Both the position numbers and the translations under genes were made by a program. Below are positions 1 through 46,454 of a DNA stretch of 46,454 nt, piece after piece (position 1 is the first letter of the stretch; each line of letters begins with the position of its first letter). This DNA comes from Shigella phage Sf11 SMD-2017: sequence record MF158038; one strand, written 5' to 3'. The notes below the pieces were generated by a model. The model was given only the letters and a program-made list of their open reading frames with translations. It did not search any database and was not told the origin of the DNA.

Positions 1-335
1 TTTTTTTGCTCGGGAAGCGAACACCTAAATTACTGATTTTGCTTAATATTGGCTTCCCGAGAATTTTTCTCATTTACCTATATACTATTGAAAGATAAAG
101 GAAAAATTAATCTCTGAAATATTAATACGCTTTTTCGGGAAGCGTGTCAACTCAGGAGGTAAAGTATGTAGGTTGCTATTAAGTGTTTCTTCGTGTGCTT
201 GCTGAATTATAGAAAAGTTGATATATTAAATTGAGTTTACTGTTGATTGATTGTCTGGAGGTTGTCATGTACAGGTTTGGTAGCGCAATGGCTGAGGTGT
301 ATGAGTTTGTTAGCGGGATGTCGATTGGAGAGGTG
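1..335. repeat. Left copy of 335-bp exact direct terminal repeat (identical to 46120..46454)
   Basis: Bases 1..335 match the last 335 bases of the window exactly; AT-rich non-coding context with CGGGAAGCG-type repeats. Confidence 0.9.
199..227 (+). promoter_or_regulatory. Candidate sigma70 promoter for rightward early operon (TTGCTG-N17-TATATT)
   Basis: -35-like ttgctg at 199-204 and -10 tatatt at 222-227 with 17-bp spacer, upstream of the first plus-strand gene. Confidence 0.4.
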
Positions 336-5670: not shown

Positions 5671-6209
5671 ATCGAGAGGACACAAAAATGGGTTTCTGGA
5701 ATCTTTCTGACGGTAAAGCTGTTGAATCTAAATCTGAATTTGAACTGGGTGGTGGTTTCGAAGTAATTCCTGATGGTAGCCGCGTTCTTGCTGCCGTTGA
5801 AGAATGTAAAGACGACCAGTGGGAAGGTGAGCGATTCTTCAATCTTAAGTGGCGAATCCTTGAGGGTGAGTATAAAAATCGCATCATCTTTCAGAAGCTG
5901 AAGGTATTTAGTTCAAAAGAGAAACAGCGTGATAATGCTATCACTATGCTTGCAGCAATTGACGCAAACGCTGGTGGTAAGCTGATGGCATCAGGGAAAG
6001 AGCCGACTGATTTTGCTATTGCCAGCGCGCTTGCAAATCGCCCGATGATTCTTCTTCTGCGCGTTTGGGAGTCTGAGGATAAGCAAAAAACTGGCAACTA
6101 TGTGGCTGGTGTTTTCAGTCGTCAACAGACAAAAGCAGCGCCTGCTCCTAAGCAATCAGCGCCATCTAACGAGCCGCCGATGGACTTCGACGACGACATT
6201 CCGTTTTAA
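5628..6209 (+). CDS. SSB-like protein carrying a host-type SSB C-terminal acidic tip (PPMDFDDDIPF); likely start ATG 5688
   Basis: C-terminus ...SAPSNEPPMDFDDDIPF matches the conserved E. coli SSB tip; RBS tcgagaggacac upstream of ATG 5688. Confidence 0.7.
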   Translation: MRHHRRQTETDHQINREDTKMGFWNLSDGKAVESKSEFELGGGFEVIPDGSRVLAAVEECKDDQWEGERFFNLKWRILEGEYKNRIIFQKLKVFSSKEKQRDNAITMLAAIDANAGGKLMASGKEPTDFAIASALANRPMILLLRVWESEDKQKTGNYVAGVFSRQQTKAAPAPKQSAPSNEPPMDFDDDIPF

Positions 6210-6220
6210 TTTAGATTGTA

Positions 6221-8583: not shown

Positions 8584-8700
8584 CAGCCACGCCAGCAATC
8601 AGGCCAACAACCGCAACGACAACAACAGCCGCCAAAACAACAAGTCCCACAAGGAGGCAATGAGCCCCCAATGGACTTCGACGACGACATTCCGTTCTGA
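8584..8700 (+). other. In-frame extension after the VRR-NUC TAA stop that encodes a Q/P-rich linker plus SSB C-terminal tip (…GGNEPPMDFDDDIPF*)
   Basis: Direct translation of 8584..8700 in the VRR-NUC frame; 26 nt (atggacttcgacgacgacattccgtt) identical to the 3' end of the SSB-like gene at 6184-6209. Confidence 0.6.
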
Positions 8701-8707
8701 TGATAAA

Positions 8708-23302: not shown

Positions 23303-23349
23303 TTTAAATCTCCTGTTGTTTGATTAGCATGATTTTAGCATATTCCTGT

Positions 23350-23378
23350 TGACGTAGATTGAGAGGGTGTTTATAGTA
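23350..23378 (+). promoter_or_regulatory. Island promoter TTGACG-N17-TATAGT with TGACGTAGA operator-like motifs
   Basis: ttgacg 23350-23355, tatagt 23373-23378; motif gacgtagattgag inside the spacer and gacgtagaaac at 23382. Confidence 0.6.
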
Positions 23379-23399
23379 ATGACGTAGAAACAACAATAA

Positions 23400-23735
23400 A
23401 TGTTAGAGGTGATGAAGATGAAAGATGAATTCAAAGGCACAAAGGGTCCGTGGGCATTCAAGAAAGAAAAAGGCGAGCAAGAGTGGTTTGTGTTTCAGGC
23501 TGGAACGTTAAAGAAAAGATATGGCGGGACTATCCGAACTCCAGTGGCGGAAGAAATTAATGATAAACATGACGCCCAACTTATCGCCTCAGCACCAGAG
23601 TTACTTGAGTCTCTTTGTCAGCTTCGCGATTATGTTGAGGATGTTTGCGCAGTATCGTCGGATGATTGTCATGAAGATCATCCATTAAATCTGGCGAACA
23701 AAACAATTAAGAAAGCATTAGGAAAGAAACAATGA
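23400..23735 (+). CDS. Hypothetical protein
   Basis: ORF track; first gene after the island promoter. Confidence 0.5.
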   Translation: MLEVMKMKDEFKGTKGPWAFKKEKGEQEWFVFQAGTLKKRYGGTIRTPVAEEINDKHDAQLIASAPELLESLCQLRDYVEDVCAVSSDDCHEDHPLNLANKTIKKALGKKQ

Positions 23736-24541
23736 AAACACTAAGCAAAATCTATTCAGACAAAGAAACGCGCAACGGAATCGCTGTCAATAAAACCTAT
23801 CTCGTGCCAGTGGAGCGAATCTATCTGGAGCCGGGATATAACATCCGTGAAGCAGACGAGCAACACGTTGAATATTTCGCGCAGTGCTGGGAATCAGGTC
23901 AGCCACTGCCAGCATTAACAGTTATTCCTGACGAGAAGGGAATCCGCATTCTTGATGGTCAGCATCGCTATCTCGGCGCATTGCGTGCCATTGAGCGTGG
24001 CGCACCAATAGTTCGCATTGAGTGCAAAGATTTCACTGGCGACGAGGCTGATAAAATTGCCTTCATGGTGTCATCAAGTCAGGGTAAGCAACTTGACCCA
24101 TTTGAGCGCGCAAAGGCTTACACGCGACTGAAAGGTTTTGGCTGGACGAATGAAGAAATCGCCAAGAAGGTAGGTCGTTCAGTATCTGACGTGCAGATGC
24201 ATCTGTCACTGGGTGATGTGCCTGCGGAAGTAAAAGCGCGAATCAGTGCCGGGCAAATCAGCTATGCAAATGCCGTAGCAGTAACGCGTGAGCATGGCGA
24301 TGATGCTGTTAAAGTTATCGACGAGGCGGTAGAGGAAGCAAAAGCACAAGGCAAAGATAAGGTTACAGCAAAGGTGCTGAAATCGAAAAAGATTAAGCCG
24401 GTAGACCGTCTGATTGAACTGTTGAAGCCAGCAGACCATGTGATTCTACCTGCTGGTCATGTGGTGACAGAGGATGAGGAGTTTATCCAGATTCCTGTTG
24501 CTGATATTCACGAGGTTATGGCAATTCTGGAGAAGATGTGA
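23732..24541 (+). CDS. ParB-like nuclease-domain (ParB/Srx fold) protein
   Basis: ILDGQHRYLGA motif (the DGxHR signature of ParB N-terminal domains); 269 aa. Confidence 0.65.
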   Translation: MKTLSKIYSDKETRNGIAVNKTYLVPVERIYLEPGYNIREADEQHVEYFAQCWESGQPLPALTVIPDEKGIRILDGQHRYLGALRAIERGAPIVRIECKDFTGDEADKIAFMVSSSQGKQLDPFERAKAYTRLKGFGWTNEEIAKKVGRSVSDVQMHLSLGDVPAEVKARISAGQISYANAVAVTREHGDDAVKVIDEAVEEAKAQGKDKVTAKVLKSKKIKPVDRLIELLKPADHVILPAGHVVTEDEEFIQIPVADIHEVMAILEKM

Positions 24542-24744
24542 TGAATGAGCGTTATGATAAATTAATTGCAGGATGGGGAGGACCCCTGCTGGCCAAGAAA
24601 GTTCACTATTTCCGCGATGGGGAAATTATCAGTGAATGTGGGAAATGGATGTTTGGTGGAGGAAGAGAAGATATATCGGCATGGAAACCTGATGCAGTAT
24701 GCAAACAGTGTCTTAAGAAGCACGAGAAGATGGAGAAGATGTGA
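24538..24744 (+). CDS. Hypothetical small protein
   Basis: ORF track; ATGA coupling with upstream gene; Cys-containing. Confidence 0.4.
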   Translation: MMNERYDKLIAGWGGPLLAKKVHYFRDGEIISECGKWMFGGGREDISAWKPDAVCKQCLKKHEKMEKM

Positions 24745-24918
24745 TGACTCCTGAACAATTCATCGAAAAACAACTGCGAACCAAACTACCTGACATTGAC
24801 AAGATGGCAATTGATGCGGCAATTCAGTATTACAAGCGCAATCAGAGCGCAAAGAAGGGCGGCATTTTTGAGGAATGCCTGAAGGTTGCAAAACAGCACA
24901 TGATTAAGGTGAAGTGAT
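24745..24918 (+). CDS. Hypothetical small protein (57 aa)
   Basis: ATG 24745 overlapping previous stop; fills the gap before the DnaN-like gene. Confidence 0.35.
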
Positions 24919-25456: not shown

Positions 25457-25485
25457 TAAAAAGCCCCTTTCGGGGCTTTTCTTTT
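25457..25485. terminator. Bidirectional terminator (agcccctttcggggct), near-identical to the one at 19276
   Basis: Same hairpin sequence as at 19280-19295, flanked by A/T runs. Confidence 0.7.
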
Positions 25486-26614: not shown

Positions 26615-29645
<3,031 letters not shown>

Positions 29646-31684: not shown

Positions 31685-31912
31685 TCAACCGTTACTGGTT
31701 GAACTATAAACCACCGCAGATATAAGTTCGTCGGCCTTTTCACGACCGGCAACCTCCGCTTCAAGCGCCAGTGAACACATGGCAGTTTCCACATACTTAA
31801 TGGTATCCTCGCGAACGTTAAGGATTTCCATAACCTCGCGCACTTCTTTCTGATATCTCGCTGCTATTTCTTTGTATCGCATTTCCACATCACCTTTTCC
31901 GTTGTGGTACAA
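31685..31912 (-). CDS. Hypothetical small protein (likely start at internal ATG near 31879)
   Basis: RBS aaaaggtga upstream of ATG MRYKEIA; ORF-track N-terminus would overlap the promoter motif. Confidence 0.4.
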   Translation of the reverse strand: MYHNGKGDVEMRYKEIAARYQKEVREVMEILNVREDTIKYVETAMCSLALEAEVAGREKADELISAVVYSSTSNG

Positions 31913-35752: not shown

Positions 35753-36234
35753 AACAATGCGATCTTTTCCGTGTTCTTAGTTATAACCCTGAATCTGGTG
35801 AATTCACGTGGATTAAATCAAGAAGACATGGGTTTAGCGGTCGAAAGGCTGGGTCGGTAAATGGGAAAGGGTACATACAGATCTGCATTGATGGAAAGCT
35901 TTACCTTGCGCACAGGCTTGCTCTTCTATACGTGACAGGAGAGATGCCAAAGGAGGTGGACCATATTAACAGGGTGAGAGATGACAATAGATTATGCAAC
36001 TTAAGGCCATGCACTTCATCTGAAAATAAGCACAACAAGGATATCACATCCAGAAACAAAACAGGGATAAAGGGCGTCAGCTGGTATCCTGCCGGAAATT
36101 CATGGAGAGTAAGGATATGCGTAAATAAAACACAGATTCATCTGGGCTACTACGAAGACATTGAGCTGGCAGAGCTTGTGTCACAAGAGGCGAGAATTAA
36201 ATACGCAGGAGATTTTAATTATGAAGCTTATTGA
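35749..36234 (+). CDS. HNH homing endonuclease with AP2-like DNA-binding domain
   Basis: HRLALLY...EVDHINRVRDDNRLCNLR...ENKHN HNH motif; GIKGVSWYPAGNSWRVRI AP2-like motif; paralogue of 42818..43348. Confidence 0.75.
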   Translation: MKQCDLFRVLSYNPESGEFTWIKSRRHGFSGRKAGSVNGKGYIQICIDGKLYLAHRLALLYVTGEMPKEVDHINRVRDDNRLCNLRPCTSSENKHNKDITSRNKTGIKGVSWYPAGNSWRVRICVNKTQIHLGYYEDIELAELVSQEARIKYAGDFNYEAY

Positions 36235-37060
36235 TTTACTGGTTAAAGAATTGCCTAAGCGTGGCGGGTGGCCTGATGGTGCTGAGTACGCAAGGGTAAC
36301 AGGATTTGGTGGTGAGAAAATTTTGGTAGATTTTCTTTTTCCAGAAGCATACAACAAGCTCAGCTACTCTATTGGAATTATTGCATGTCACCTTGTTGAT
36401 GCAGGTGCGGATGTTGATTATCACATGATACGTCGCGATTCGTATGAATCCGCACTCGCGGCATCGAAAAAGCCAGCATGGAACGGCGAGGGCCTGCCGC
36501 CTGTTGGGTGCGAGTGCGAGGTGTCAGTGGATGGCGGCCGCTCATGGTGTACATACAGAGCAGAGAAAATTTTGGTAGATTTTCTTTTTCCAGAAGCATA
36601 CAACAAGCTCAGCTACTCTATTGGAATTATTGCATGTCACCTTGTTGATGCAGGTGCGGATGTTGATTATCACATGATACGTCGCGATTCGTATGAATCC
36701 GCACTCGCGGCATCGAAAAAGCCAGCATGGAACGGCGAGGGCCTGCCGCCTGTTGGGTGCGAGTGCGAGGTGTCAGTGGATGGCGGCCGCTCATGGTGTA
36801 CATACAGAGCGATAAACGAGAAAAATGGAGTTCGGCTAATTGAAATTGGTAACTTAACGGAAGAATTTCAAAATAACAACTGGATTTTCCGCCCACTCCG
36901 CACTGAAGCGGAAAGGAAGCGTGAAGCTGCGGCGAAAGAAATGGCTCGCCACGCCAACGAAGATGCACATCGCAAATTCAATGCTGGATTAAGAAATTGC
37001 CTGTCAATTTACGACGCAATCGCAGCAGGCAAGATTCCTGGCGTGAAACTGGAGGATTGA
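36161..37060 (+). CDS. Hypothetical protein containing a perfect 83-aa tandem duplication (likely start ATG 36221)
   Basis: Protein segment EKILVDFLFPEAYNK...GGRSWCTYRA occurs twice consecutively; DNA 36314-36561 equals 36563-36810. Confidence 0.55.
   Translation: MSWQSLCHKRRELNTQEILIMKLIDLLVKELPKRGGWPDGAEYARVTGFGGEKILVDFLFPEAYNKLSYSIGIIACHLVDAGADVDYHMIRRDSYESALAASKKPAWNGEGLPPVGCECEVSVDGGRSWCTYRAEKILVDFLFPEAYNKLSYSIGIIACHLVDAGADVDYHMIRRDSYESALAASKKPAWNGEGLPPVGCECEVSVDGGRSWCTYRAINEKNGVRLIEIGNLTEEFQNNNWIFRPLRTEAERKREAAAKEMARHANEDAHRKFNAGLRNCLSIYDAIAAGKIPGVKLED
36314..36811 (+). repeat. Perfect 2 x 249-bp in-frame tandem duplication
   Basis: Direct comparison: period 249 bp, 248/248 identical positions in the core. 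Confidence 0.9.
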
Positions 37061-46119: not shown

Positions 46120-46454
46120 TTTTTTTGCTCGGGAAGCGAACACCTAAATTACTGATTTTGCTTAATATTGGCTTCCCGAGAATTTTTCTCATTTACCTAT
46201 ATACTATTGAAAGATAAAGGAAAAATTAATCTCTGAAATATTAATACGCTTTTTCGGGAAGCGTGTCAACTCAGGAGGTAAAGTATGTAGGTTGCTATTA
46301 AGTGTTTCTTCGTGTGCTTGCTGAATTATAGAAAAGTTGATATATTAAATTGAGTTTACTGTTGATTGATTGTCTGGAGGTTGTCATGTACAGGTTTGGT
46401 AGCGCAATGGCTGAGGTGTATGAGTTTGTTAGCGGGATGTCGATTGGAGAGGTG
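46120..46454. repeat. Right copy of 335-bp exact direct terminal repeat
   Basis: Identical to 1..335. Confidence 0.9.

Follow-up and report, generated by a model that had tools for sequence, protein, structure and literature searches.

An orphan ParB-family protein encoded in an accessory island of Shigella phage Sf11 SMD-2017

The ParB-like gene and its product

The window analysed here, a stretch of 46,454 nucleotides (nt), is the sequence of Shigella phage Sf11 SMD-2017 (record MF158038), and the gene under study is an open reading frame (ORF) on its plus strand, which starts with ATG at 23732, ends at 24541 and encodes a ParB-family protein of 269 amino acids (aa). These limits agreed with a preliminary description of the same DNA, as did the D-G-Q-H-R-Y motif on which its call was based (residues 75-80, nt 23954-23971; codons GAT GGT CAG CAT CGC TAT). 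The product is, with high confidence, an orphan ParB-family DNA-binding protein and not a partition protein. Our reading as a whole, with a probability of about 0.5, is that an orphan ParB encoded in an early accessory operon acts as a ligand-gated DNA-binding regulator or organiser, and is neither a partition protein nor a demonstrable nuclease. The gene is common, with annotations in hundreds of genomes, and its product is an uncharacterised member of a known superfamily. It is somewhat unusual in four respects: a DGHHR-type pocket is joined to a canonical ParB helix-turn-helix (HTH), the Pfam model PF02195 does not see it, it is near-universal in a lytic lineage, and natural deletions occur.

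Profile and fold methods agreed on three domains (Table 1): an N-terminal ParB/sulfiredoxin fold, which is divergent, a ParB/KorB-type HTH and a small C-terminal domain. The whole length was matched by PHROG 1033 ('ParB-like partition protein', E=1.1e-90). The gene call lies well outside chance, and homologues number in the hundreds. The HTH was matched by Pfam HTH_ParB (PF17762; 44 bits, cut-off 22.6, E=2.5e-11), a model that also matched all 31 aligned relatives. The model of the KorB DNA-binding domain (PF08535) was matched as well (25.8 bits, cut-off 22.3, E=1e-5; 17 of the 31 relatives); this is weak evidence for a subfamily, because the model overlaps the generic ParB HTH. The closest solved structures were Spo0J/ParB, Noc and KorB, with no stand-alone nucleases, and the Noc model TIGR04285 reached 38 bits, which is below its cut-off. 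The C-terminal sequence varied across the family except at G207, K210 and T212, and the first 21 residues were conserved yet predicted to be flexible (predicted local distance difference test, pLDDT, 63-65).

The preliminary description had taken D-G-Q-H-R-Y as the mark of a ParB/sulfiredoxin-fold N-terminal domain. The fold itself was recovered by profile and fold methods; the usual Pfam model for it, ParB_N (PF02195), was not matched, and the domain is too divergent for that model though the fold is present. The label 'nuclease-domain protein' in the same description proved to be a legacy name: the architecture is that of the DNA-binding proteins ParB, Noc and KorB, and nothing in it indicates nuclease chemistry.

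Nucleotide-type pocket and family conservation

The residues of the pocket were compared with those of Bacillus subtilis Spo0J by mapping the structure-hit alignment to Spo0J numbering (Table 1). The Spo0J sequence used for this numbering is consistent with the published positions G77, R80, E111 and N112. The G-x-x-R phosphate-binding loop of box II is present, with G76 and R79 of the phage protein aligned to G77 and R80.

An exhaustive search of 1.84 billion cluster representatives (50% identity) gave 1312 cluster relatives at E<=1e-10, which were mostly 250-350 aa long and matched residues 1-225. Conservation was scored in an alignment of 46 family members (25-52% identity). Only two residues of the entire protein were invariant (46/46), N37 of box I and G76 of box II; nearly invariant were R39 (45/46), R79 (44/46), D75 (41/46), G118 (39/46), H78 (38/46) and S115 (35/46), and the family consensus reads GFNxR ... 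DGHHR ... SxQGxPL. Selection has thus acted most strongly on the pocket, an argument that it is a functional ligand site. ParB/sulfiredoxin folds are known to bind cytidine triphosphate (CTP), ATP or GTP (survey in PMC12704722); the domain-centric part of that survey probably omitted the DGHHR-type family, because PF02195 misses it.

Phage lineage and the partition question

Both ends of the window (1-335 and 46120-46454) are identical over exactly 335 base pairs (bp), which shows that the window is a complete phage genome; the identity is either a terminal repeat or an overlap from circular assembly. Searches with megablast and tblastn placed the phage among the Skatevirus-like small siphoviruses of Salmonella, E. 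coli and Klebsiella, with relatives that include Vi II-E1, seszw, KFS-SE2, Skate, swi2 and BASEL phages Bas77-81. In BASEL phenotyping, the group was described as lytic, O-antigen-dependent and markedly sensitive to restriction-modification systems and to Old (PMC11990801). The late structural genes lie on the minus strand and are interspersed with several short plus-strand islands, which have promoters of their own.

A true partition protein, acting for a plasmid-like carrier state of the phage, would agree with the database name and with chromosomal Spo0J/ParB being the closest solved relatives. The genome speaks otherwise. A six-frame scan of its whole length found no deviant Walker A motif (KGGxxK[ST]), the only P-loops being in a Sak4-like ORF and in the large terminase, and no ParA was annotated in the relatives examined. 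The ParA-activating motif LG(R/K)GL is absent from the N-terminus (MKTLSKIYSDKETRNGIAVNKTY) and from the family consensus, and canonical parS had no match in the window at up to 3 mismatches. The closest relative, swi2, has no annotated integrase or repressor, the group is lytic, and homologues are carried by integrated lambdoid prophages, for which partition is unnecessary. The expectation in the preliminary description that this is not a conventional partition protein was borne out, since ParA, the N-terminal motif, canonical parS and any OB- or Noc-binding-site (NBS)-like sequence above chance level were all missing from the genome. The partition reading is refuted as far as sequence analysis can do so, and we regard it as extremely improbable.

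Architecture of the island

The ParB-like gene is the second of five plus-strand genes that form an island within the late structural region, with opposite-strand genes on both sides (Table 1). All junctions within the operon are 4-nt start/stop overlaps (ATGA or GTGA), which points to translational coupling. The promoter was kept in swi2, ZX4 and Tbat1_6, and promoter and 5' untranslated region (UTR) were nearly invariant in four genomes, the ParB proteins of which are only ~80% identical. Its class is common to other antisense islands: -35 regions of the TGTTGACGTAGAT type were also found at 31912(-), 35066(+), 40734(+) and 45781(-). Hairpins resembling the terminator of the island occur at 19277 and 13813. 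With this promoter, this terminator and coupled genes between them, the ParB-like and DnaN-like genes do share one promoter-driven island, as had been proposed.

The first gene diverges fast (27-56% identity in relatives) and is replaced by other genes in some genomes. The 58-aa ORF, in contrast to the variable slot before it, always stands directly upstream of the DnaN-like gene.

Table 1. Features of the island and of the ParB-like protein. Positions are those of the window; residue numbers are those of the phage protein unless Spo0J is named.
Feature	Position	Strand	Remarks
Sigma-70-type early promoter, TTGACG-17-nt spacer-TATAGT	23349..23377	+	consensus scan 10/12
Two direct copies of TGACGTAGA	23350-23358; 23380-23388	+	over the -35; near the inferred transcription start
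Operon gene 1, 111 aa	23400..23735	+	PHROG 1273, unknown function; stop overlaps ParB start (ATGA)
Operon gene 2, ParB-family protein, 269 aa	23732..24541	+	
N-terminal ParB/sulfiredoxin-fold domain, ~aa 22-120	23795..24091	+	
Box I, G-Y-N-I-R	23834-23848	+	N37-I-R39, aligned with Spo0J Q37-P-R39
Box II, D-G-Q-H-R-Y	23954-23971	+	G76-Q-H-R79-Y-L-G-A, aligned with Spo0J G77-E-R-R80-F-R-A-A
Box III, S-S-S-Q-G-K	24071-24088	+	S114-S-S-Q-G-K, aligned with Spo0J E111-N-L-Q-R-E
ParB/KorB-type HTH DNA-binding domain, aa 120-202	24089..24337	+	
Inferred recognition helix, R-S-V-S-D-V-Q-M-H-L-S-L	24176-24211	+	
Lys-rich linker GKDKVTAKVLKSKKIKP and small C-terminal domain (helix/two-strand/helix)	24344..24538	+	AlphaFold2 (AF2) model, pLDDT 80-88
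Operon gene 3, 68-aa ORF	24538..24744	+	PHROG 2358, unknown function; variable slot
Operon gene 4, 58-aa ORF	24741..24917	+	PHROG 4439, unknown function
Operon gene 5 (last), DnaN-like beta-clamp-derived protein, 179 aa	24914..25453	+	
Bidirectional intrinsic terminator closing the island, AAAAGCCCCTTTCGGGGCTTTT then T-run	25459..25480	both	strong hairpin

Search for a DNA target

Known ParB-family sites were looked for in the window. The KorB operator OB (TTTAGCSGCTAAA) gave 2 matches at 2 mismatches, which is no more than chance and both of which were intragenic, and the NBS site of Noc did not exceed chance level. The perfect palindromes of the window were terminators or occurred at about chance frequency. 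Three inverted repeats were conserved in four divergent genomes. The first of the conserved repeats is a terminator stem, and the second (AGTTCATGAACT) lies inside a tail gene, where its conserved arms encode a conserved peptide; both were rejected as ParB sites. The repeat GTTGAC-N4-GTCAAC at 28407, inside the 496-aa ORF of a head gene, was rejected as well and is not evidence for a site, because its conserved arms also encode a conserved peptide.

The 9-mer TGAYGTAGA was strongly over-represented, with 12 copies in the window (0.59 expected) and 10-14 in related genomes. The copies, at 18370, 23350/23380, 31913/31938, 35069/35098, 40662/40737/40754 and 45765/45782, are paired at sigma-70-like early promoters, where they cover the -35, the -10 or the inferred start site. 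One copy lies upstream of the ParB operon of Jilinvirus, which is suggestive and insufficient. As an operator of the ParB-like protein the 9-mer was rejected, because relatives that lack ParB keep it and lambdoid loci with homologues do not have it. It resembles a signature of this promoter class, or an operator bound by another regulator.

Variation, loss and spread of the island

Within the lineage the island keeps a frame made of a variable first gene, the ParB-like gene, a variable slot, the 58-aa ORF and the DnaN-like gene. The first position is held by the 111-aa protein, by an 86-aa 'anti-restriction' ORF together with a small ORF, or by a 207-aa EaC protein; the slot after ParB is held by the 68-aa ORF, by extra small ORFs, by endonuclease VII or by a C5-methylase. 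The start of a C5-cytosine methylase gene coincides with the stop codon of ParB in Klebsiella phage ZX4 and Salmonella phage ST1UNAM, and the islands of several other relatives have annotated methyltransferases. The cargo-hotspot loci are at 14643-15638 of L007 (ZX4), 1855-2652 of L015 (ST1UNAM) and 419-679 of L014 (phage Sa179lw).

Two Macdonaldcampvirus isolates, Salmonella phages CHRF_10034 (L012, 3294-3811) and CHRF_10023.1 (L013, 2350-2666), are natural deletions of the island. They share the flanking structural genes, the promoter and the 5' UTR, and carry a 46-aa ORF that is a remnant of the ParB C-terminus. In CHRF_10034 the ORF of the island starts MEGEAEVVVVDAGHAVTEDEEF..., and its match to ParB is confined to the final 44 residues; it is followed by the 58-aa ORF, which survives in both deletion variants. 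CHRF_10023.1 has an HNH endonuclease upstream. Neither the body of ParB nor a DnaN-like gene was found in the island region of the two isolates, and a collection-wide search gave no other ParB match for them. The ParB-like gene is therefore near-universal in the lineage and not required for a viable lytic phage, and its dispensability argues against an indispensable role such as that of the sole early-to-late switch.

Outside phages, the same family was found on 1049 plasmid records, of which 685 are conjugative, with homologues of ~32% identity over 93% of the length. Lambdoid prophages, too, carry members of the family, in their early regions. On plasmid Rts1 (L016, 6815-7882) the homologue is part of a long run of small hypothetical genes, all on one strand. 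The frequency on plasmids and the setting on Rts1 would fit a general 'establishment' role on mobile elements.

The DnaN-like gene

The last gene of the operon encodes a beta-clamp-derived protein of about half the length of DnaN (TIGR00663 dnaN, E=1.1e-8; PHROG 947 'processivity factor', E=1.4e-11; PHROG 3007, E=7.6e-64). It is widely annotated as 'RusA-like Holliday junction resolvase' after PHROG 3007, a name that is probably wrong. An AF2 model from a shallow alignment was unusable (pLDDT 41.8).

It had been suggested that this gene and the ParB-like gene make up a small DNA-targeting system. Such a two-part module for DNA targeting or replication, in which the clamp-like protein would link phage DNA, marked by ParB, to the replisome of host polymerase III, would be in keeping with the single translationally coupled operon, with the lack of a phage DNA polymerase among the large early ORFs of the window that were scanned, and with the ability of each gene to sit just upstream of lambdoid O/P replication genes. 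The distributions of the two genes tell against it. Beyond the Skatevirus-like lineage, ParB homologues (43-48% identity) follow N in a Chimaeribacter prophage, separate cII from the O/P genes in Morganella prophages and adjoin the tail genes of Jilinvirus myophages, and none of these loci has a DnaN-like, 58-aa or 111-aa neighbour. DnaN-like genes outside the lineage (39-53% identity) were found in the lambdoid Hafnia phage yong1 (L010, 12623-13159), between cII and O of the O/P genes, and in the Dhillonvirus EP23, a Shigella phage (L011, 20007-20519), in an antisense island among head genes; no ParB was found within the parts of these two genomes that were examined. The two genes thus did not co-occur in the loci examined outside the lineage. 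Among lineage records of the phage collection, ~201 carried the capsid (>=60% identity), ~194 ParB and ~144 the DnaN-like gene, so that about 50 more records had ParB than had the DnaN-like gene. The interval between the two genes is a variable cargo slot, and it is the 58-aa ORF, and not ParB, that accompanies the DnaN-like gene. The suggestion of one joint system was accordingly given up, and the replication-module explanation is held to be quite unlikely.

Other features of the genome

Three further observations concern other parts of the window. A perfect tandem duplication of 248 nt with a period of 249 nt (83 codons) occupies 36314-36561 and 36563-36810, within an ORF of 299 aa (36161-37060, plus strand; PHROG 7798, unknown function) whose counterpart in swi2 has ~216 aa; either a recent duplication in frame or an artefact of the assembly could account for it. 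A repeat of 43 nt with 88% identity (..GAGCCGCCGATGGACTTCGACGACGACATTCCGTT..) joins the 3' end of the gene for the single-stranded DNA-binding protein (SSB), at 6168-6210, with 8659-8701, ~2.5 kb downstream. Its translation ends in DDDIPF, the typical SSB C-terminal tip, and suggests a second ORF with an SSB-like tail at 8659-8701. A strong early-type promoter (TTGACA-17-TAGATT) at 20070-20103 faces ~600 bp (region 20040-20700) with no convincing ORF, and the corresponding region of swi2 holds tRNA-Met.

Proposed function and alternative explanations

The gene is read early by host RNA polymerase, as the second of the five genes of the accessory operon, and in the mechanism that we propose the protein would bind DNA as a dimer through its HTH. 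The N-terminal pocket would serve as a ligand-gated switch, with a nucleoside triphosphate (NTP) as the ligand, for self-association or clamp closure; the protein would in this way cover tracts of phage or host DNA, with an effect on transcription or on how the DNA is organised at the start of infection. It is an accessory fitness factor outside the core lytic programme. Taken separately from the identity of the protein, this ligand-gated regulator or organiser mechanism is tentative, with something close to, or slightly under, an even chance.

Several points weigh against the proposal. At the level of the fold, PF02195 gave no match at E<=1 (and matched only one of the 31 relatives, at E=0.0075), and the ParB model TIGR00180 stayed below its cut-off (38.9 bits, 58.45 needed). 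In the pocket, the Spo0J residues E111 and N112, which serve Mg2+ coordination and hydrolysis, are replaced by Ser-Ser, and the first Arg of GERR is replaced by His next to R79; CTP-type hydrolysis may for these reasons be absent, and with the canonical residues gone the ligand and the catalysis are unreadable from the sequence. Neither sequence nor AlphaFold3 predicts nucleotide specificity in this fold, and 17 of the 28 purified proteins of the survey bound no NTP (PMC12704722). Dimerisation through the C-terminal domain is assumed from the architecture of the ParB family. No shared inverted repeat, half-site or k-mer was found near the gene among Skate-like, Jilinvirus and lambdoid loci, and both copies of TGAYGTAGA at the island promoter are kept in the relatives from which the ParB gene has been deleted. 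In the literature library that was searched, the protein and its close homologues appeared in annotation tables only, and no experiment on them was found.

Among the alternatives, an effector of anti-defence or host takeover, which would act against a host immune system or nucleoid protein by coating or masking phage DNA or by titrating a host factor and would not regulate phage genes, has the most to commend it. With a promoter and a terminator of its own, the island is a moron-like accessory cassette; relatives have the anti-restriction ORF, a C5-methylase or endonuclease VII in the neighbouring slots, and some of them have lost the gene; the gene is also common on conjugative plasmids, where ParB-like genes of the leading region act at entry (PMC13370423), and the conserved flexible first 21 residues would suit a partner-binding peptide. 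Against this stands the marked sensitivity of Skatevirus isolates to restriction-modification systems and Old (PMC11990801), from which a broad anti-restriction effect can be discounted; nor was there a PADLOC match (the models of which cover defence, not anti-defence), and no specific target can be named. We therefore consider this effector unlikely, with perhaps a modest minority of the probability. A cofactor of DNA modification, which would recruit or activate a modifying enzyme on double-stranded DNA, is less probable again. The methylase that starts at the ParB stop codon in ZX4 and ST1UNAM, and the methyltransferases in several other islands, would suit such a role, as would the phage-enriched fusions of ParB folds with methyltransferases (PMC12704722) and the activation of the thymine dioxygenase 5mYOX176 on double-stranded DNA by a ParB protein (PMC13229309). 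No methylase or dioxygenase was found, however, in the Sf11 island or in the ten large plus-strand ORFs of the replication and early region that were scanned; swi2, the closest annotated relative, lists neither genome-wide, most relatives keep ParB with no methylase, and the ParBs associated with 5mYOX have no HTH, which the phage protein does. For the last reason and for want of a dioxygenase in the scanned ORFs, the 5mYOX-ParB analogy was rejected as the main model. The DNA-modification and anti-defence setting put forward in the preliminary description is accordingly supported only indirectly, by the slots on either side of ParB in the relatives.

That the protein is a DNA-acting enzyme, a nuclease or NTPase of the ParB-like kind such as Osa or the archaeal ParB nucleases, is very improbable. 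Matches to nuclease-type families were all below their cut-offs (the DGQHR-domain model TIGR03187 at 16.2 bits, 58.85 needed), the best full-length matches were the non-nuclease DNA-binding proteins ParB, Noc and KorB, and no active-site motif of a nuclease was identified; the dedicated HTH, together with a probable dimerisation domain, would fit a DNA-binding switch. Ranked by likelihood, the alternatives run from anti-defence or host-factor titration through the modification cofactor, the module with the DnaN-like protein and the nuclease to partition. The ligand-gated regulator or organiser is preferred to all of these.

On a wider and still doubtful view, to which we attach a little more weight than to the anti-defence effector, the DGHHR-type family, made up of small proteins (about 270-320 aa) of phages, prophages and plasmids, would be a distinct class of ParA-independent, nucleotide-gated DNA clamps, which a lytic phage would use within the first minutes of infection to silence or remodel host or phage chromatin. 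Such a clamp might be the viral counterpart of KorB and HerB, with a ligand other than CTP and a non-canonical, Ser-Ser hydrolysis chemistry. Orphan ParB-fold proteins are versatile nucleotide switches on mobile elements, and almost none from lytic phages has been characterised. The gene is near-universal in widespread phages of Salmonella, E. coli and Klebsiella that are under development for biocontrol and therapy, and its database name of 'partition protein' may lead readers to assume lysogeny, a reading that its ParA-less, early and dispensable status corrects. The function can be tested directly with the Skatevirus isolates of the BASEL collection (Bas77-81) and with the natural deletion variants; only a new type of clamp or a host-reprogramming factor would make the payoff more than modest.

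Comparison with known systems

Chromosomal ParB/Spo0J and Noc are CTP-dependent clamps. The phage protein differs from them in being encoded by a lytic phage and in having no ParA, LG(R/K)GL, parS or NBS; its box II reads DGQHRYLGA in place of GERRxRAA, and its box III reads SSSQGK in place of ENLQRE, with neither the catalytic Glu nor the Mg-binding Asn, in keeping with scores below the cut-offs of TIGR00180 and TIGR04285. KorB of plasmid RK2 is a ParB-family sliding clamp that represses transcription (PMC11790492), and a regulatory role of this kind is what we infer for the phage protein. KorB has canonical CTP motifs, whereas the phage genome has no OB-like operator and no KorA- or IncC-like partner was identified in it.

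DndB and other DGQHR-domain proteins are ATP-responsive repressors of dnd operons with the ParB/sulfiredoxin fold. They resemble the phage protein in the DGQHR motif of box II and in the use of this fold for nucleotide-responsive DNA binding; the HTH of the phage protein, in contrast, is of the ParB type, the score with TIGR03187 was far below the cut-off, PF14072 was weakly matched by 2 of 31 members, and no dnd genes were found in the window or in the relatives examined. With other ParB-fold accessory proteins of phages the Sf11 protein shares its phage origin, its independence of ParA and, in some relatives, a C5-methylase directly downstream; it differs in having an HTH of its own and no enzyme fusion.

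HerB/YfjB comes from the leading region of the F plasmid; produced immediately on entry, it binds the host nucleoid and reprograms transcription (PMC13370423). At 652 aa, with the extra domains D3 and D4 as a dimerisation module and a canonical CTP pocket, it is unlike the 269-aa phage protein. By hhalign the two were related at 86% probability (E=5e-6), over the N-terminal domain and HTH only, and BLASTP was not significant; because the homology is only remote, HerB is used as a mechanistic analogy and not as a member of the family. The two are nevertheless alike in kind: both are orphan ParB-like proteins of mobile elements, in which a nucleotide-binding domain, a putative one in the phage protein, is joined to an HTH and no parS-like consensus is seen. 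The working mode that we propose for the phage protein would accordingly be modelled on KorB, Noc, VirB and BisD, and especially on HerB/YfjB.

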